The notes under the pieces: model-generated
The model's database searches: none
What the model was told of the DNA's origin: nothing
The model's input: only the letters and a program-made list of their open reading frames with translations
Source: Escherichia phage vB_EcoD_Opt-719
DNA: 48,302 nucleotides
Strand: one strand, 5' to 3'
Sequence record: OL539451.1
Shown here: positions 1-48,302 of the stretch, in pieces
How positions within the stretch are numbered: position 1 is the first letter of the stretch
How the letters are laid out: each line of letters opens with the position of its first letter
Made by a program: the position numbers and the translations under genes

Positions 1-73
1 TATAGCATCAATATTTGGGGTTATTGTCGGATTTACTATAATTTACAACATCTGGAAGATTAGGAGTTAAGCT

Positions 74-589
74 ATGTCAGAAGAGAAAAAGATTCACCAG
101 AAGATAGGGAACTTCAAGGAGCTCTATAATAAGAAGTATGGCGACATTGCCAATCTGAAAATTAACCACAAGTTCACGCCAGAGCAGGTGTTCGATTTGG
201 CTGTTAAGTACTTCACGTGGGCAGAAGAACAAGCAATCAAAGCAATTGAGACGGCCAGCTTCCAGGGTATCGTAACTGAGAACCTTATTCACAAGCCGCG
301 AGTATTTACGATAACTGGGTTCCAGCTGTTCTGCGGCGTAGGTCATAATGCTATCAGCAAGTGGCGCTCATCGCCTGGGTTCGATGAGGTCATGGAGTTC
401 GTTGACTCGGTCATCTTTGAGCAGAAGTATCAGCTGGGTGTTAACAACATCGTCAACCCCGGACTGATTGGCAAAGACCTTGGCATCGATAAGCCGCAAG
501 AGGTTAACATCAACAATGCTTCTAATGCCGTGGTAAACGATGAGGAAGCAATGAAGGCCGCCCTGACTTCGGTAATGGAAAAACTATGA
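74..589 (+). CDS. putative terminase small subunit
   Basis: 171-aa ORF, AGGAG RBS at 62-66, immediately upstream of the terminase large subunit gene; assignment by position only. Confidence 0.45.
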   Translation: MSEEKKIHQKIGNFKELYNKKYGDIANLKINHKFTPEQVFDLAVKYFTWAEEQAIKAIETASFQGIVTENLIHKPRVFTITGFQLFCGVGHNAISKWRSSPGFDEVMEFVDSVIFEQKYQLGVNNIVNPGLIGKDLGIDKPQEVNINNASNAVVNDEEAMKAALTSVMEKL

Positions 590-690
590 AAATACTAAAA
601 TCTATACTGGCATACTACGTCCTTTCTTGCATGGCATTCACTAGCGGCTTTCTTATTGGTGTAATTATTGGAGCAATAAAAAATCTATGA
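586..690 (+). CDS. hypothetical small hydrophobic peptide (34 aa)
   Basis: ATG 586 overlaps upstream stop (ATGA) and its TGA overlaps ATG 687 (ATGA); MKILKSILAYYVLSCMAFTSGFLIGVIIGAIKNL is TM-like; below ORF-track cutoff. Confidence 0.3.
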   Translation: MKILKSILAYYVLSCMAFTSGFLIGVIIGAIKNL

Positions 691-2255
691 ATACATTAGC
701 ATGGGAGGAGATGACGCCAGCCGAAAAGCTGGCAGTTAAGGCGCTATCCACTCACAGCTTCGAGGCATTCCTTCGCGTATGGTTCCAGTTATCGCAGGGT
801 GAGAGATACATCCCTAACTGGCATCATAAATACCTTTGCCGAATCATTGACGAGGTTATTAGTGGGGAGCGCAGGGATACCATCATTAACGTAGCTCCTG
901 GGGCCGGTAAAACCGAGATTACATCTATTCACTTTCCGGTCTACTCAATGATCAGGCTACCAAAGGTTAGGAACCTTAGCTTGTCATTCTCAGACAGTCT
1001 GGTGAAGCGTAACTCCAAGCGTGTTCGCGACCTAATCAAGTCCCCTGAGTTCCAGGAACTATGGCCTTGCAAGTTTGGCACGTGCAAGGATGATGAAATT
1101 CAGGTTCTTGATGAGAGTGGAAAGGTTAGATTCGAAGCTATATCGAAAGCAATTGGCGGTCAGATTACTGGTGCAAGGGGTGGATACATTACAGATAGCT
1201 ACAGCGGCTGCTTGATGCTGGATGACCCCGACAAACCAGACGACATGCTCAGCAAGGTAAGGCGTGAGGCTGTGCACGTTTTACTCAAGAATACCATCCG
1301 CTCACGTAGGGCTAGTAGCGTTAAAGGTAAAGCTACGCCGATTCTGTCAATTCAGCAAAGGCTTCATACGCAGGATTCAACGTGGTTCATGACTTCTGGC
1401 GGTATGGGTATCGACTTTGATGTAGTGAAGATACCAGCGCTGGTTAATGAAGACTATGTGAACGAGCTTCCTGACTGGATTCGTGAGCAGTTCGAGAAGG
1501 ACGTGCTTTCATCTGAATCAGTTGAGCGTGATGGGGTCAGGTACTATAGCTATTTCCCTCAAAAGGAATCCGTGCATGATTTGATGGCAATGTGGGAATC
1601 AGACCCGTACACATTCCTAAGCCAGTACCAACAATCACCAGTAGCTCTAGGTGGAAACCTGATCAACGTCGATTGGTTCGTAAGACTTGATGAGAATAAC
1701 AGGCCGCCAGTCAAGTATGACTACCGATTCATTACTGCCGATACTGCCATGACTACGAAGAGTTATAGCGACTACTCTGTGTTACAGCTGTGGGGTCGTA
1801 AGGGTAACAAGCTTTACCTTCTGGACATGGTAAGAGGTAAGTGGGAAGCGCCTGAGCTTGAGCAAACTCTTCTGGACTTTGAGAGTAAGCACAGAGCCAC
1901 CAGTAAAGCGGACGGTATCTTACGCAAGGTTATTATCGAGAAAAAGGCATCTGGTATCGGTCTTATCCAGTCAGCGGGTCGGACGATGCGAACTCCTATC
2001 GAGCCTTTCGTTCCTGATACAGATAAGTTGACCAGGGTGATGAGCGCATTGCCACAAATTAAGGCGGGTAACGTAATTCTGCCAGACTCTGCTCCATGGC
2101 TTACATCTTTGCTAACTGAGTTCTCAGCATTCACTGCTGATGATTCTCATCCCCATGATGACATTGTGGATACCACAACGATGGCTATCAACTGTGAACT
2201 AAACTTAGCGGACGATCCAAGGGCTAGGTTGATGAGGTTAGCAGGTGTTAGATAG
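687..2255 (+). CDS. terL: terminase large subunit
   Basis: 522 aa; P-loop-like VAPGAGKTE near N-terminus, acidic nuclease-like C-terminal half; sits between terS-like and portal genes. Confidence 0.8.
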   Translation: MNTLAWEEMTPAEKLAVKALSTHSFEAFLRVWFQLSQGERYIPNWHHKYLCRIIDEVISGERRDTIINVAPGAGKTEITSIHFPVYSMIRLPKVRNLSLSFSDSLVKRNSKRVRDLIKSPEFQELWPCKFGTCKDDEIQVLDESGKVRFEAISKAIGGQITGARGGYITDSYSGCLMLDDPDKPDDMLSKVRREAVHVLLKNTIRSRRASSVKGKATPILSIQQRLHTQDSTWFMTSGGMGIDFDVVKIPALVNEDYVNELPDWIREQFEKDVLSSESVERDGVRYYSYFPQKESVHDLMAMWESDPYTFLSQYQQSPVALGGNLINVDWFVRLDENNRPPVKYDYRFITADTAMTTKSYSDYSVLQLWGRKGNKLYLLDMVRGKWEAPELEQTLLDFESKHRATSKADGILRKVIIEKKASGIGLIQSAGRTMRTPIEPFVPDTDKLTRVMSALPQIKAGNVILPDSAPWLTSLLTEFSAFTADDSHPHDDIVDTTTMAINCELNLADDPRARLMRLAGVR

Positions 2256-2269
2256 CACGAATTGCTAAA
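2252..2269 (+). promoter_or_regulatory. promoter-cassette motif copy (ATAGCACGAATTGCTAAA)
   Basis: inverted repeat TAGCA-N5-TGCTA; contains terL TAG stop; followed by GGATGG, TATAAT, A-rich leader and GAGAGGAG RBS before ATG 2325. Confidence 0.5.
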
Positions 2270-2324
2270 GACAATAGCCACGGATGGCATATAATTAACT
2301 CACTTAAACGAGAGGAGATAGTAA

Positions 2325-2681
2325 ATGTTTAAAGCTAAATTTGTAAATTACAAAACACCAGCATCTGGTTATATTGGTATTTTCACTCCTGGTAGGGAGT
2401 ACAAACTAGATGTCATTGAGAATGACAGATATTATAGAACATACGATGATTACGGCGTAGAGGTTAAGTTCAATTCACTTTTTTTAGATAATTATGTTTT
2501 TGAGCGAGTTTCAGATTCCGAGCTGTTTGACATGATTGAGGAGCCAGCAAGCCTAAAGTATTATATCAATGGCAACTTGGTGCAAAAAAGCTACTTCTAC
2601 GAGTTAATTGGCGAGCTAAATGAGGCTGATAGACTTGGCGCCAAAGTGTCTTCAGTCAAATTTGAAATCAAGTTCGAGTAA
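2325..2681 (+). CDS. hypothetical protein (118 aa), moron-like
   Basis: own promoter cassette upstream and rho-independent terminator downstream; inserted between terL and portal. Confidence 0.5.
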   Translation: MFKAKFVNYKTPASGYIGIFTPGREYKLDVIENDRYYRTYDDYGVEVKFNSLFLDNYVFERVSDSELFDMIEEPASLKYYINGNLVQKSYFYELIGELNEADRLGAKVSSVKFEIKFE

Positions 2682-2701
2682 TCAAAACTCTGTGATACAC
2701 T

Positions 2702-2725
2702 AGCCCCTACTCAGGGGCTTTTTTA
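2702..2725 (+). terminator. rho-independent terminator
   Basis: hairpin AGCCCC-loop-GGGGCT followed by TTTTTT. Confidence 0.7.
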
Positions 2726-2738
2726 TTGGAGAAATTAC

Positions 2739-4007
2739 ATGGTAAAAGCAGACAGCTACGCAAACATCTTTCTTAACGGGAGTGATGGTAGCGAGATTTA
2801 CGGAAGGTTTGGCGGCCTTGGCTTAACAGCTCCAGCGCAGCTTGAGCAGCTTTACGTCAGTAGCGCACTGGTTCGTCGAATTATTGATATCGTGCCAGAG
2901 GTTGCACTTGGCGCTGGCTTTAACATTGAGGGTATCGACGATGAAGGTGCTTTCTGGTCGCGCTGGGATGATTTAGACCTTTCAGATAGTGTAATCGACG
3001 CACTGGCGTGGGCAAGATTATACGGTGGAGCTGCTGTAGTGGCAATTGTCAAGGATGGCAGGGCGCTAACTAGCCAGGTTAGGGAGGGAGCTGAACTTGA
3101 AACTATCCGCGTCTACGACCGACAGCAAATTAAGGTTCAGACTCGAGAGGAGAATCCACGTAACGCGCGATTTGGAAAGCCAGTTACCTATCGCATTACG
3201 CCAAATGGTTCGGCCACATTCTACGACGTGCATTACACTCGCTGCCACATCATCGATGGCGAAAGGGTTCCGAACAACCTACGCCGCAACAACGATGGTT
3301 GGGGCGCAAGCGTGCTAACTGGTGACTTAATCGACGCGATTGACGACTATCAGAACTGTGAGAGACTGGCTACTCAGTTACTTCGTCGAAAGCAACAGGC
3401 TGTGTGGAAAGCGAAAGGTTTGGCTGATTTATGCGATGATTCTGATGGATTTGGTGCAGCTCGCTTACGCCTGGCGCAGGTTGATAATAACAGCGGCGTT
3501 GGTCAGGCTATTGGTATTGATGCAGAGAGTGAAGAATATGACGTTCTTAACTCTGACATTGGTGGTATTGATGCATTCTTGAGCCAGAAGTTCGACAGAA
3601 TCGTTGCCCTGAGCGGCATCCATGAAATCATTCTCAAGGCCAAGAATACTGGAGGTGTATCAGCTAGCCAAAACACAGCCCTTGAGACTTTCTATGGTTA
3701 TGTTGACCGCAAGCGCAAGTCAGACCTGCTTCCTTTACTTGGTTTCCTGATTCAATTTATTGTCACTCAGGACGAATGGTCAGTTGAATTTAATCCACTA
3801 TCTCAAGTTAGCGATAAAGATAAATCTGAGATTCTAGAGAAGAACGTTAACTCAGTTTCAGCTCTTGTTGCTGGTGGCGTGATGAATACTGATGAAGCCC
3901 GTGATACACTACGAGCTATTGCGCCAGAGGTTAAGCTGCAAGATGGTGATATTGAGCAAACCGCTCAGGGGAAAACAGTCGAGGAGGTAGTGATTAATGA
4001 AGAGTAA
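2739..4007 (+). CDS. putative portal protein
   Basis: 422-aa ORF directly after terminase region, acidic C-terminus; portal call by position and size, family not verified. Confidence 0.55.
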   Translation: MVKADSYANIFLNGSDGSEIYGRFGGLGLTAPAQLEQLYVSSALVRRIIDIVPEVALGAGFNIEGIDDEGAFWSRWDDLDLSDSVIDALAWARLYGGAAVVAIVKDGRALTSQVREGAELETIRVYDRQQIKVQTREENPRNARFGKPVTYRITPNGSATFYDVHYTRCHIIDGERVPNNLRRNNDGWGASVLTGDLIDAIDDYQNCERLATQLLRRKQQAVWKAKGLADLCDDSDGFGAARLRLAQVDNNSGVGQAIGIDAESEEYDVLNSDIGGIDAFLSQKFDRIVALSGIHEIILKAKNTGGVSASQNTALETFYGYVDRKRKSDLLPLLGFLIQFIVTQDEWSVEFNPLSQVSDKDKSEILEKNVNSVSALVAGGVMNTDEARDTLRAIAPEVKLQDGDIEQTAQGKTVEEVVINEE

Positions 4008-42138: not shown

Positions 42139-42191
42139 CTGATATCTCCTCGTTGTCGATGTGATAACTATAACCAATCAGGGCTGAATGG

Positions 42192-42211
42192 TCATTAGCA
42201 AAAAGTGCTAT
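42192..42211 (-). promoter_or_regulatory. promoter-cassette motif copy (minus orientation)
   Basis: reverse complement AATAGCACTTTTTGCTAATG with TATAGT and CATCGACAACGAGGAG leader toward 41920..42138. Confidence 0.5.
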
Positions 42212-42214
42212 TCG

Positions 42215-42345
42215 TTCGATTTATGGATTGTTGCAGATATTGCAATGATTCACTTCACTATTGCATGTATAGCAATATTGCATCGATTGCAATGATTTTC
42301 TGGACTGTTGCGAAATTTAGCAATGATTGATGGATTGATGGAATG
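42215..42345. repeat. iteron-like array (GCAATGATT x3, ATTGCAAT palindromes, ATTGATGG x2); candidate origin/operator
   Basis: approx. coordinates; three direct GCAATGATT copies near 42241, 42288, 42319, two perfect ATTGCAAT palindromes and several ATTGCA/TAGCAAT half-sites in an ORF-free divergent region. Confidence 0.5.
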
Positions 42346-42509
42346 AAGGAGGGCGCATCAACTAGTTGGTTGGTTTTAGCTTACACGAGGAGCTTTCCTT
42401 TATATACGCGTTATGGCTTGTTCAACCGTGTGGAGAAATTGCCATATTTACGCCATCCACGCCAGTTTACGCGCTGGTTACAAAATAAATCCCTTATATA
42501 ACAACCTTT

Positions 42510-42540
42510 TAGATTTATTATTATTATTATTATTATATAT
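42510..42540. repeat. (TTA)n microsatellite in AT-rich spacer
   Basis: approx. coordinates; TTATTATTATTATTATTAT followed by ATATATG; candidate DNA-unwinding element next to iterons. Confidence 0.4.
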
Positions 42541-42812
42541 GTTATCCCGTAACCATGATTATCCAAGATATTGGTGATATTTTTTTGATATTGCGCGGCG
42601 CATAAAGATTTAGATAAAGAGATAGGGATGCAAGTGGGGTGGAGAAAATGGCTTAACAGACCATAACGGCAATAACAGCCTTGATATGACTAGCGTCAGC
42701 ATGTAACAATTTAGCATAACGTGCGATTACTGAGTTGAACGTGTAAATAATGCTTGCGACATTCACCCATCATGGTAAGATGCTCTCACACTAAACGAGA
42801 GGAGTAGTAAAA

Positions 42813-43328: not shown

Positions 43329-43870
43329 TGTTTGATTTCAAAGAGGATAAACTTACTTATGAGCAGGTGTTAGCAGCAGCAGCGGCAGACAATCTGCCTC
43401 CCTTGCGAGTATCAATAATTGCAAATGGTTACCGACAATCTGCAAATCTATGGCCTGAACTGGATAAGGTCAAAGATTTCGAACTAGACACTGGAGCTTT
43501 AAAGATTATAGAAATCCTCATTAATCAAGGAATGAGCAGTAAAGGTGTCGTTGGTCTCGGGTCACTATATAATACAGTAAGGAAAGTTAAACCATTCGAA
43601 GGTAAAAGTGAAGTAATTATGGATATCAGAGATGTCATCATCCCAAACCTTGATAAGCTTGGCTATGCATGCCTAATCGGAGATAAGATTTACATCAACC
43701 CTAAACTGCTTGATGGCAACCAGGACTGGACTTACAAGGTTAAGCTGCTGGAAGATGATTTCAACATCGACGATTGCGAGAAGATTGTTGACGAGATTAC
43801 TATCAAGGCAATTGATGAGCAAATCGAGAGGCTCAAGCGGAAGAAGAAGTACCTCCTGACCGGTAAATAG
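43328..43870 (+). CDS. ATPase-less mini-paralog of the 39438..41021 P-loop protein
   Basis: 180 aa; MFDFKEDKLTYEQVLAAAAADNLPPLRVSIIANGYRQSA and KGVVGLGSLY...CLIGDKIYINPKLL match the N- and C-termini of the 527-aa protein; ATG overlaps upstream TAA. Confidence 0.55.
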   Translation: MFDFKEDKLTYEQVLAAAAADNLPPLRVSIIANGYRQSANLWPELDKVKDFELDTGALKIIEILINQGMSSKGVVGLGSLYNTVRKVKPFEGKSEVIMDIRDVIIPNLDKLGYACLIGDKIYINPKLLDGNQDWTYKVKLLEDDFNIDDCEKIVDEITIKAIDEQIERLKRKKKYLLTGK

Positions 43871-46163: not shown

Positions 46164-46294
46164 AGATTCATAATGGCGAATACAGTAATTTTTACATTGA
46201 TGAGTGCGTTGAACTATATGAAGGATATGGCGAGCCAACTGCGTGCCATGGAGATGAGCTTGGTATCAGCTTTCCCGAAGAGCGTGAGGATTGA
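46160..46294 (+). CDS. hypothetical micro-ORF (44 aa)
   Basis: ATG overlaps upstream stop (ATGA); GAGG RBS. Confidence 0.25.
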   Translation: MKIHNGEYSNFYIDECVELYEGYGEPTACHGDELGISFPEERED

Positions 46295-46297
46295 TAT

Positions 46298-46540
46298 ATG
46301 AGCAAGTACAACCGAGAGATTATCGGCCTGGATGGAACGTTAACGACAGTCGATGTATATCGTGTTCTGGATGCATTCCAGGTAACAGACCCAGCAATTC
46401 AGCACGCAATCAAGAAAATGCTCTGTACTGGGTTGCGAGGCCACAAGGATTACCTCACCGACATTGATGACTCAATAGAATCACTTAGGAAAGCAAAGGA
46501 GCTTTACGGTCAGAAGAAGATAAATAGCACGAATTGCTAA
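46298..46540 (+). CDS. hypothetical protein (80 aa)
   Basis: track ORF; C-terminus NSTNC supplied by promoter-cassette motif. Confidence 0.45.
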   Translation: MSKYNREIIGLDGTLTTVDVYRVLDAFQVTDPAIQHAIKKMLCTGLRGHKDYLTDIDDSIESLRKAKELYGQKKINSTNC

Positions 46541-47296: not shown

Positions 47297-47489
47297 TCCA
47301 TTCAAGAGTTTCGCTGTTTCTATGGGATGGACTTGCAGGAAGCATGTATTCGTACTCTTTAGGCATATCAAGTGGTATGAGATTGAGTACTACCGCAAAG
47401 GATATAGAAGTAAGCTGGTATGTCGCAATTGCAATAAAATGATTTACTCTAAGATTGATTTTAATGATAAATTTGGATTGCCACTATGA
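47289..47489 (+). CDS. hypothetical protein (66 aa), possible Cys-containing small zinc-binding protein
   Basis: start ATG 47289 (track TTG 47181 overlaps previous gene); contains WTCRKH and CRNCNK. Confidence 0.35.
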   Translation: MINPFKSFAVSMGWTCRKHVFVLFRHIKWYEIEYYRKGYRSKLVCRNCNKMIYSKIDFNDKFGLPL

Positions 47490-47554
47490 CTGAACTATCA
47501 ATATGGTTCCTGGCTGGCATGCTGACTTGGATTTATTTCGTGGTCATGGCTTGA
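47486..47554 (+). CDS. hypothetical hydrophobic micro-ORF (22 aa)
   Basis: ATG overlaps upstream TGA (ATGA); MTELSIWFLAGMLTWIYFVVMA. Confidence 0.25.
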   Translation: MTELSIWFLAGMLTWIYFVVMA

Positions 47555-47746
47555 CTCAAATGTTTAATATGGTTAGTATTAAACACGTAGACGGCAATGA
47601 CCGTAACGCGCATCGCGGAGATGAAAGCCGATAGCCGGGCTGGATAAAGATACGAGGCAACTACCGCATCGCCAAAAGCAAAGTGTAAGTCGGACTTGCG
47701 GAGCATTGTGAAAGCTCGCCGGATTCCGTAACCGGCACCTATTCAA

Positions 47747-47822
47747 GTTCTGTTAGTGTAAGTGGACAGCACGAAGACCTCCTAAGTCTTAGGTACTGGT
47801 TCAAGTCCAGTGCGGAACGCCA
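47747..47822 (+). tRNA. tRNA-Arg (anticodon CCU)
   Basis: 76 nt cloverleaf by hand: 7-bp acceptor (GTTCTGT/GCGGAAC, two G-U), D-stem GTGT/GCAC with GG in loop, anticodon loop CUCCUAA, T-arm ACTGG-TTCAAGT-CCAGT, encoded CCA. Confidence 0.8.
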
Positions 47823-47827
47823 AATAT

Positions 47828-47929
47828 GCTCACGTTGCTAATGTTGGCCTAAGGGTGGAGCTTATACCTCCATAAAGCAATCACCAGATAAGTGATGTAA
47901 CGCAGGTTCGATTCCTGCCGTGAGCACCA
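47828..47929 (+). tRNA. atypical tRNA-like element (102 nt incl. CCA)
   Basis: perfect 7-bp acceptor pairing GCTCACG/CGTGAGC, T-arm GCAGG-TTCGATT-CCTGC, discriminator A plus CCA; two candidate anticodon stem-loops (CUUAUAC, CAGAUAA); D-region ~26 nt too long. Confidence 0.35.
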
Positions 47930-47945
47930 ATCATGGAGCATCCTA

Positions 47946-48131
47946 GTGAATAACTACGAAGTCCGTTTAACTTCCCGCCTAATGGGCAGGCAATGCAAAT
48001 CTTGCCAGCAATCCTACGAAGGTAGGTTCCCTGCTAACAGCCCTGAAGAAGCAGTTGCAGCCGCAAAGGCAGCATTTAAGATTGACCTGACGGTTCACAA
48101 AGTCAGCGTTGATAAAGTATCCCTCGTTTGA
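47946..48131 (+). CDS. hypothetical protein (61 aa)
   Basis: GTG start with GGAG 8 nt upstream; Ala/Lys-rich; followed by strong terminator. Confidence 0.35.
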   Translation: MNNYEVRLTSRLMGRQCKSCQQSYEGRFPANSPEEAVAAAKAAFKIDLTVHKVSVDKVSLV

Positions 48132-48159
48132 GATTGGTAATCTCGCAATGTAGTGTTTC

Positions 48160-48183
48160 GCCCTCCTCGTGAGGGCTTTTTTT
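48160..48183 (+). terminator. rho-independent terminator
   Basis: hairpin GCCCTC-CTCGT-GAGGGC followed by TTTTTTTT. Confidence 0.7.
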
Positions 48184-48195
48184 CGTCTCTACTCA

Positions 48196-48204
48196 TGGTA
48201 CAAT
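48196..48204 (+). promoter_or_regulatory. extended -10 promoter element TGgTACAAT
   Basis: same TGnTACAAT element as at 5641-5649; ~20 bp upstream of AGGAGG RBS. Confidence 0.4.
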
Positions 48205-48229
48205 GACTTTTAAAACAGGAGGAATGACA

Positions 48230-48292
48230 ATGACAGGCTATCAACCAAAACCACACGATGGCGAAATAAAACCACCGCCAAGGAGACCTTGA
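48230..48292 (+). CDS. hypothetical micro-ORF (20 aa, Pro-rich)
   Basis: AGGAGG RBS 7 nt upstream; TGA overlaps next ATG (ATGA). Confidence 0.25.
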   Translation: MTGYQPKPHDGEIKPPPRRP

Positions 48293-48302
48293 TGATTGAG
48301 TC
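48292..48302 (+). CDS. 5' end of a gene truncated by the window edge (continues in frame at 1..70 if the molecule is circular)
   Basis: AGGAG RBS 6 nt upstream of ATG 48292; joined to window start gives 26-aa TM-like ORF MIESIASIFGVIVGFTIIYNIWKIRS ending at TAA 68-70. Confidence 0.35.

Follow-up and report, generated by a model that had tools for sequence, protein, structure and literature searches.

Phages of the T1 group have terminally redundant, circularly permuted genomes, and it is routine to open their records at the start codon of terS, the gene for the small terminase (PMC4070988). For phage TLS, restriction mapping revealed headful packaging from a pac site, which yields three to four successively shifted molecules (PMC11447400), and PhageTerm called headful packaging with a pac site for the Rogunavirus UDF157lw (PMC10838988). 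Digests of phage SU57 indicated permuted DNA and no cos site (PMC7718038). In the T1 reference record, a repeat_region of 2.8 kb (1..2800) is marked at the left end, and nothing is stated on termini in the Rogue1 paper.

Here we analyzed the complete record of Escherichia phage vB_EcoD_Opt-719 (OL539451; 48,302 bp, 44.69% GC), which we refer to at its full length as the window. The ends of T1 have been mapped experimentally (∼2.8 kb of redundancy, limited permutation), whereas those of the phage in the window are predicted from its relatives. All 22 genomes of the phage set from which Opt-719 comes circularised upon assembly (PMC9119101). The original prediction, made from the letters of the window, was that an open reading frame (ORF) at the window end runs on at the window start, and this seamless join was taken as a sign of a circularised assembly of a terminally redundant, permuted genome.

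Relationship to T1-like phages and the terminase genes

The region around the end-to-start join was matched by 92 phage records, foremost those of Rogunavirinae, and three Rogunavirinae records were collinear with the window over its full length at 99.99% identity. The T1-type small terminase subunit (TerS), large terminase subunit (TerL) and portal are all present, with matches to PF16677, PF17289 and PF06381. We conclude that the window holds one genome length of a virulent, T1-like siphophage (Drexlerviridae, Rogunavirinae). Its terS gene (74..589, + strand), annotated as terS in the sister records too, encodes a P22 gp3-like TerS that matches PF16677 (GP3_package) with an E value of 2e-8, above the curated cut-off, and terL (687..2255, +) matches PF17289 (Terminase_6C). 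TerS and TerL are each 57% identical to their T1 counterparts, and TerL is 82% identical to that of UDF157lw. The layout is also that of T1, leading from a divergent intergenic region through a small-gene block to terS.

Between terS and terL lies a hydrophobic micro-ORF of 34 amino acids (MKILKSILAYYVLSCMAFTSGFLIGVIIGAIKNL; 586..690, +), which has ATGA overlaps at both ends and is annotated as SADIYA_2, PHLEASOLO_2 and OPT719_2, the last name agreeing with terS as the first gene of OL539451. The same slot holds an unrelated hydrophobic ORF of 37 amino acids in Sd1, nothing in Rogue1 and a 162-amino-acid "DNA-binding protein" in UDF157lw; the terminase region of phiEB49 contains an annotated HNH endonuclease. 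The flanks of terS look like an insertion hot spot in Rogunavirinae. Rogue1, Jk06, Sd1, Sf12, UDF157lw and other relatives are otherwise syntenic with the window and share with it the terminator, the extended -10 element, the AGGAGG sequence and the terS-terL module that are described below. They differ in that the content of the terS-terL slot varies and in that terS follows directly on the Shine-Dalgarno (SD) sequence, the 145-nt insertion found in the window being absent.

Circular continuity and the origin of the record boundary

Reading and translating the joined ends confirmed that the frame is continuous. The ATG at 48292 and the last 11 nt of the window (48292..48302, +) join in frame to position 1 and stay open until the TAA at 68-70, 3 nt before the terS ATG at 74, and the joined product is the predicted 26-amino-acid, transmembrane (TM)-like peptide, MIESIASIFGVIVGFTIIYNIWKIRS*. 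Taken alone, this continuation is weak evidence of circularity. A run of 23 further stop-free codons has a probability of ∼0.25 given the base composition and of 0.13 when the first 70 nt are shuffled, so that an open frame across the join would arise by chance 13 to 25% of the time; in this gene-dense genome, at least 26 open codons lie ahead at 36% of all + strand positions. No direct repeat links the two window ends (exact matches, k ≥ 8).

The comparison with related genomes opened elsewhere, which had been proposed as a check, gave a positive result. Whole-genome comparison revealed that the records of Sadiya, PhleaSolo and Opt-79 are rotations of the window by -9, +70 and +686 nt, respectively, at 99.99 to 100% identity. 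Escherichia phage vB_EcoD_Sadiya (OL539467) opens at window position 48294, 82 nt before the terS ATG; Escherichia phage vB_EcoD_PhleaSolo (OL539447) opens at position 71, 3 nt before it; and Klebsiella phage vB_KpnD_Opt-79 (OL539453) opens at position 687, the terL ATG itself. The three share with the window the gene order, the 145-nt insertion and the micro-ORFs, and differ from it in their linearisation points and in one to two indels. In Opt-79, the sequence continues across the join of window end and window start with 100% identity, and the wrapped ORF is annotated as a contiguous coding sequence (OPT79_84, 47602..47685) of 27 amino acids with a TTG start.

Consistently, the region around the join is internal in the records of at least 10 relatives. 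The same block of terminator, promoter, SD sequence and terS lies deep within the records of Sd1 (at ∼39.2 kb), Jk06 (21.8 kb), phiJLA23 (21.7 kb), C119 (42.7 kb) and Rogue1 (3.6 kb). An exact 34-mer spanning the junction was absent from IMG/VR, and a TerS-based locus search of the same resource returned already known isolates only. That four near-identical genomes are opened at four points within ∼770 nt of terS/terL is the signature of convention rather than of terminase cleavage. We thus conclude that the window boundary is an editorial linearisation and neither a physical end nor a terminase cut site. The proposal of a circularised assembly is supported by these comparisons and by the published circularisation, the open frame itself contributing little.

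Several further differences among the sister records were observed. In PhleaSolo, a 133-nt segment (window 46173-46305) is missing from its syntenic place and is found instead at 43400-43531 of that record, ∼2.8 kb upstream, owing to a genuine small transposition or else to an error of assembly. The GenBank host fields of the three 99.99%-identical sisters name Serratia marcescens, Escherichia coli and Klebsiella pneumoniae. According to the paper (PMC9119101), the isolation host of Sadiya was E. coli BW25113; the length is given there as 48,403 bp but in GenBank as 48,303 bp. These mismatches in host and length are probably metadata errors; otherwise, the host range would have to be very broad.

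Very probably, the window is the unit genome of a pac/headful T1-like phage that was circularised and then cut editorially near terS, with the second of two micro-ORFs (micro-ORF2) split by the cut. The virions would contain linear DNA with terminal redundancy and partial circular permutation. Together with TerL, the P22-gp3-like TerS would cut the concatemer at pac and start packaging, and a few successive heads would then be filled, each with slightly more than one genome length. Shotgun reads of such a DNA population would assemble into a circle, which the submitters would have opened just upstream of terS, as is the convention. The cut would have fallen 11 nt into micro-ORF2, so that the ORF seems to leave the window at its end and to resume at position 1. 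The predicted terminal redundancy and permutation are supported by homology with the T1-like relatives: TerL is closely similar to that of PhageTerm-typed UDF157lw and more distantly to that of T1, and on this basis we infer the same physical DNA form for the isolate.

Fixed, exact direct terminal repeats (T7/T5-style and non-permuted) that collapsed in assembly would likewise yield a circular contig, since any terminally repeated linear genome circularises; circularisation is all that the report on the source phages gives (PMC9119101), and SU57 showed no sub-molar pac fragment. Nevertheless, T1 and TLS package by the headful mechanism from pac with limited permutation, as was established experimentally, the UDF157lw phage with its closely related TerL was typed as headful/pac, and TerS belongs to the P22 gp3 family, all of which makes fixed repeats very improbable here. 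That the boundary might be a genuine physical end (cos or a defined terminus), with the in-frame continuation a coincidence of the kind expected at 13 to 25% of random joins, is scarcely credible, as the three independently sequenced sisters opened elsewhere read through this point, the region is internal in so many relatives, a cut here would part terS from its conserved promoter and SD sequence, the window has no terminal repeat (although an assembler would have collapsed one) and SU57, a relative, gave no sign of cos.

If packaging of the editorially opened genome indeed starts at pac, the first cut most likely lies ∼6 kb upstream of the boundary, at 42.2 to 42.8 kb. The candidate is a divergent intergenic region (42178..42812) of 635 non-coding nt between the leftward and the rightward gene blocks. 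Position 1 of the UDF157lw record, which was reorganised by PhageTerm, aligns to ∼42354 of the window, and the start of the Rogue1 record aligns to ∼42277; the divergent intergenic region at the syntenic place in T1 contains position 1 of that phage, where its 2.8-kb terminal repeat begins. This placement is based on an alignment of 77% identity with a single PhageTerm-reorganised record and on record-start conventions, and nucleotide alignment of the T1 pac/junction region with the window gave no match. We regard 42178-42812 as a candidate pac, origin or regulatory region. Several repeats of the GCAATGATT and GATTGATGGATTGATGG types (∼42230-42345) and an (ATT)7 microsatellite (42517-42537) were observed in this interval.

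Two micro-ORFs between the ancestral Shine-Dalgarno sequence and terS

The upstream small-gene/tRNA block ends in a Rho-independent terminator (48160..48183, +; GCCCTCCTCGTGAGGGC followed by T7) with a GCCCTC/GAGGGC stem, which is kept in Sd1 and Rogue1. It had been predicted at exactly this place, was confirmed by reading, and its hairpin and T7 run were also found by a terminator scan. Directly after tRNA-Arg(CCT) in this block, we observed a second tRNA-like gene (47828-47926, +), which scores 42.7 bits in the Rfam tRNA model, above the gathering threshold. ARAGORN predicts a length of 93 nt and a long extra arm but could not assign the anticodon. The gene is unannotated in all three sisters; in Sd1, tRNA-Arg is preceded by a tRNA-Trp instead. 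When 47300-48302 was scanned with Rfam, the only matches were two of the tRNA type.

Downstream of the terminator, the extended -10 promoter-like element TGgTACAAT is read directly at 48196..48204 (+), and we take it to be the putative promoter of the packaging/late operon. The block CATGGTACAATGACTTTTAAAACAGGAGGAAT is identical in the alignment with Sd1 and Rogue1, as is the promoter block CATGGTACAATGAC, and the flanks are variable. The sequence of the element was thus as originally described, but a two-hexamer promoter scan did not list it, because its -35 region is poor. An AGGAGG SD sequence follows at 48217..48222 (+). In the relatives, AGGAGG is the SD sequence of terS itself: their aligned sequence reads AGGAGGAATATCA(A/C)ATG(T/C)CAGAAG, straight into terS, and that of Sd1 and Rogue1 runs TTTTAAAACAGGAGGAATATCA(A/C)ATG(T/C)CAGAAGAG, so that the relatives pass from AGGAGGAAT directly to the terS ATG.

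In the window, the same AGGAGG precedes a micro-ORF instead. Alignment revealed a lineage-specific insertion with a 5' part at 48226..48302 (+) and a 3' part at 1..73 (+), amounting to a net gain of 145 nt in the window and its three sisters, placed exactly between the ancestral terS SD sequence and the terS ATG. This insertion is absent from Sd1, Sf12, Rogue1, Jk06, phiJLA23, C119, phiKP26, UDF157lw, BECP10 and e4/1c. The insert has an ATG(A/T)CAG motif at its left edge, and the motif is seen again at the start of terS; this recurrence could be microhomology that was used in acquiring it.

The insertion carries two micro-ORFs, both of which had been correctly located from the letters. Micro-ORF1 (48230..48292, +; MTGYQPKPHDGEIKPPPRRP*) encodes a proline-rich peptide of 20 amino acids, 7 nt downstream of the AGGAGG SD sequence. 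It carries no annotation in any sister record, and its tblastn matches are confined to the sisters. Micro-ORF2 comprises the 11 nt at the window end and the remainder at 1..70 (+), and its ATG lies 6 nt downstream of an AGGAG SD sequence at 48281-48285. The overlap between the two is not ATGA, as had been claimed, but TGATG, in which stop and start share one A (1 nt). The last codons of micro-ORF2 do contain, as predicted, the SD sequence of the downstream gene: AGGAG at 62-66, 7 nt before the terS ATG. Further in-frame starts are an ATG at 48224 and a TTG at 48289, the latter being the one used in Opt-79 to give 27 amino acids. The ATG at 48224 is 6 nt upstream of the micro-ORF1 start and 1 nt from the SD sequence (ATGACAATGACA, window 48224-48232).

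The predicted product of micro-ORF2 has the features of a single-pass membrane protein, namely a canonically spaced SD sequence in front of its gene, a hydrophobic segment of ∼19 residues and flanking positive charge. Its clean hydrophobic core reaches a best 19-residue Kyte-Doolittle mean of 1.94 and is followed by KIRS at the C terminus. Phage late operons are known to contain upstream micro-ORFs with translational coupling as well as small membrane "moron" peptides. With these, the two micro-ORFs share the stop-start overlap, the embedded downstream SD sequence and a single-TM peptide of fewer than 30 amino acids; the likeness of micro-ORF2 to "moron" peptides is a general resemblance and not homology, a family being unassignable where homologues are missing.

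Together, the ORFs cover 143 nt of the 153-nt interval from the upstream SD sequence to the terS ATG, each with a canonically spaced SD sequence and a stop-start overlap. An SD-equipped ORF relay tiling these 153 nt arose in 0.6% of shuffles, and such a relay plus an SD sequence before terS in 0.02%. By this test, which is post hoc, the whole SD/ORF arrangement before terS is non-random.

We consider it reasonably probable that both micro-ORFs are translated in relay, thereby maintaining terS expression, and that micro-ORF2 gives rise to a small inner-membrane peptide, translation being suggested by the arrangement of SD sequences and overlaps. In such a relay, micro-ORF1 would use the old terS SD sequence, micro-ORF2 would start on the stop codon of micro-ORF1 (TGATG), and its last codons would supply the new SD sequence for terS; ribosomes would most likely be passed through both micro-ORFs to terS.

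A less likely but still appreciable possibility is that the micro-ORFs are not genes and that the insertion is non-coding filler, for example, the remnant of a lost mobile element, for which only a new terS SD sequence was needed. The searches are compatible with such filler, as no homologue was found in any of the collections searched. The 150-nt insert gave no blastn match in 5,426 complete E. coli genomes, and, among 50,697 phage records, the insert as DNA and both peptides by tblastn matched the three sisters only. A degenerate back-translation of the micro-ORF2 core had no match beyond the sisters in JGI metagenome contigs and IMG/VR, and an exact protein look-up placed the 27-amino-acid product in a singleton cluster among ∼15 billion proteins. 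The four known, near-identical carriers show zero variation in the micro-ORF sequences. Filler would also agree with the apparent insertion hot spot at the terS flanks and with the sister annotations, in which micro-ORF2 is called in one of three and micro-ORF1 in none. However, the extent of the tiling with its SD sequences and stop-start overlap, rare among shuffles, and the hydrophobic core of micro-ORF2 ending in KIRS both speak against filler. So does the RNA: the leader showed nothing unusual in its structure (fold z-score of +0.55) and thus no hint of an RNA function.

Going beyond a translated relay, one might suppose that the 145-nt cassette was gained recently as a functional module, that TerS synthesis depends on the two-ORF translational relay, and that the cassette tunes TerS dosage or provides the packaging operon with a small membrane effector, with the polyproline stretch of micro-ORF1 (KPPPRRP-stop) potentially making it EF-P sensitive. 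We regard this larger scenario as speculative and rather unlikely.

Significance of the boundary and of the cassette

Circularity and headful packaging are already published for this group of T1-like phages, and the wrapped ORF is already annotated in Opt-79. Only mildly new is that both micro-ORFs lie in an orphan insertion of 145 nt, which separates the ancestral ribosome-binding site of terS from the start codon. For users of the record, the ends of the window are not biological ends, and the record should be treated as circular in ORF calling, in analyses of operon structure and in repeat searches. The promoter and the ancestral SD sequence of terS are located at the other end of the record from the gene. 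Because the cut divides the ORF of 26 to 27 amino acids, the window record does not annotate it; it is also unannotated in two of the three sisters, being intact and merely uncalled in PhleaSolo. For the biology of these phages, the micro-ORF cassette illustrates how tiny genes, if such they are, may enter an essential operon without breaking downstream translation.
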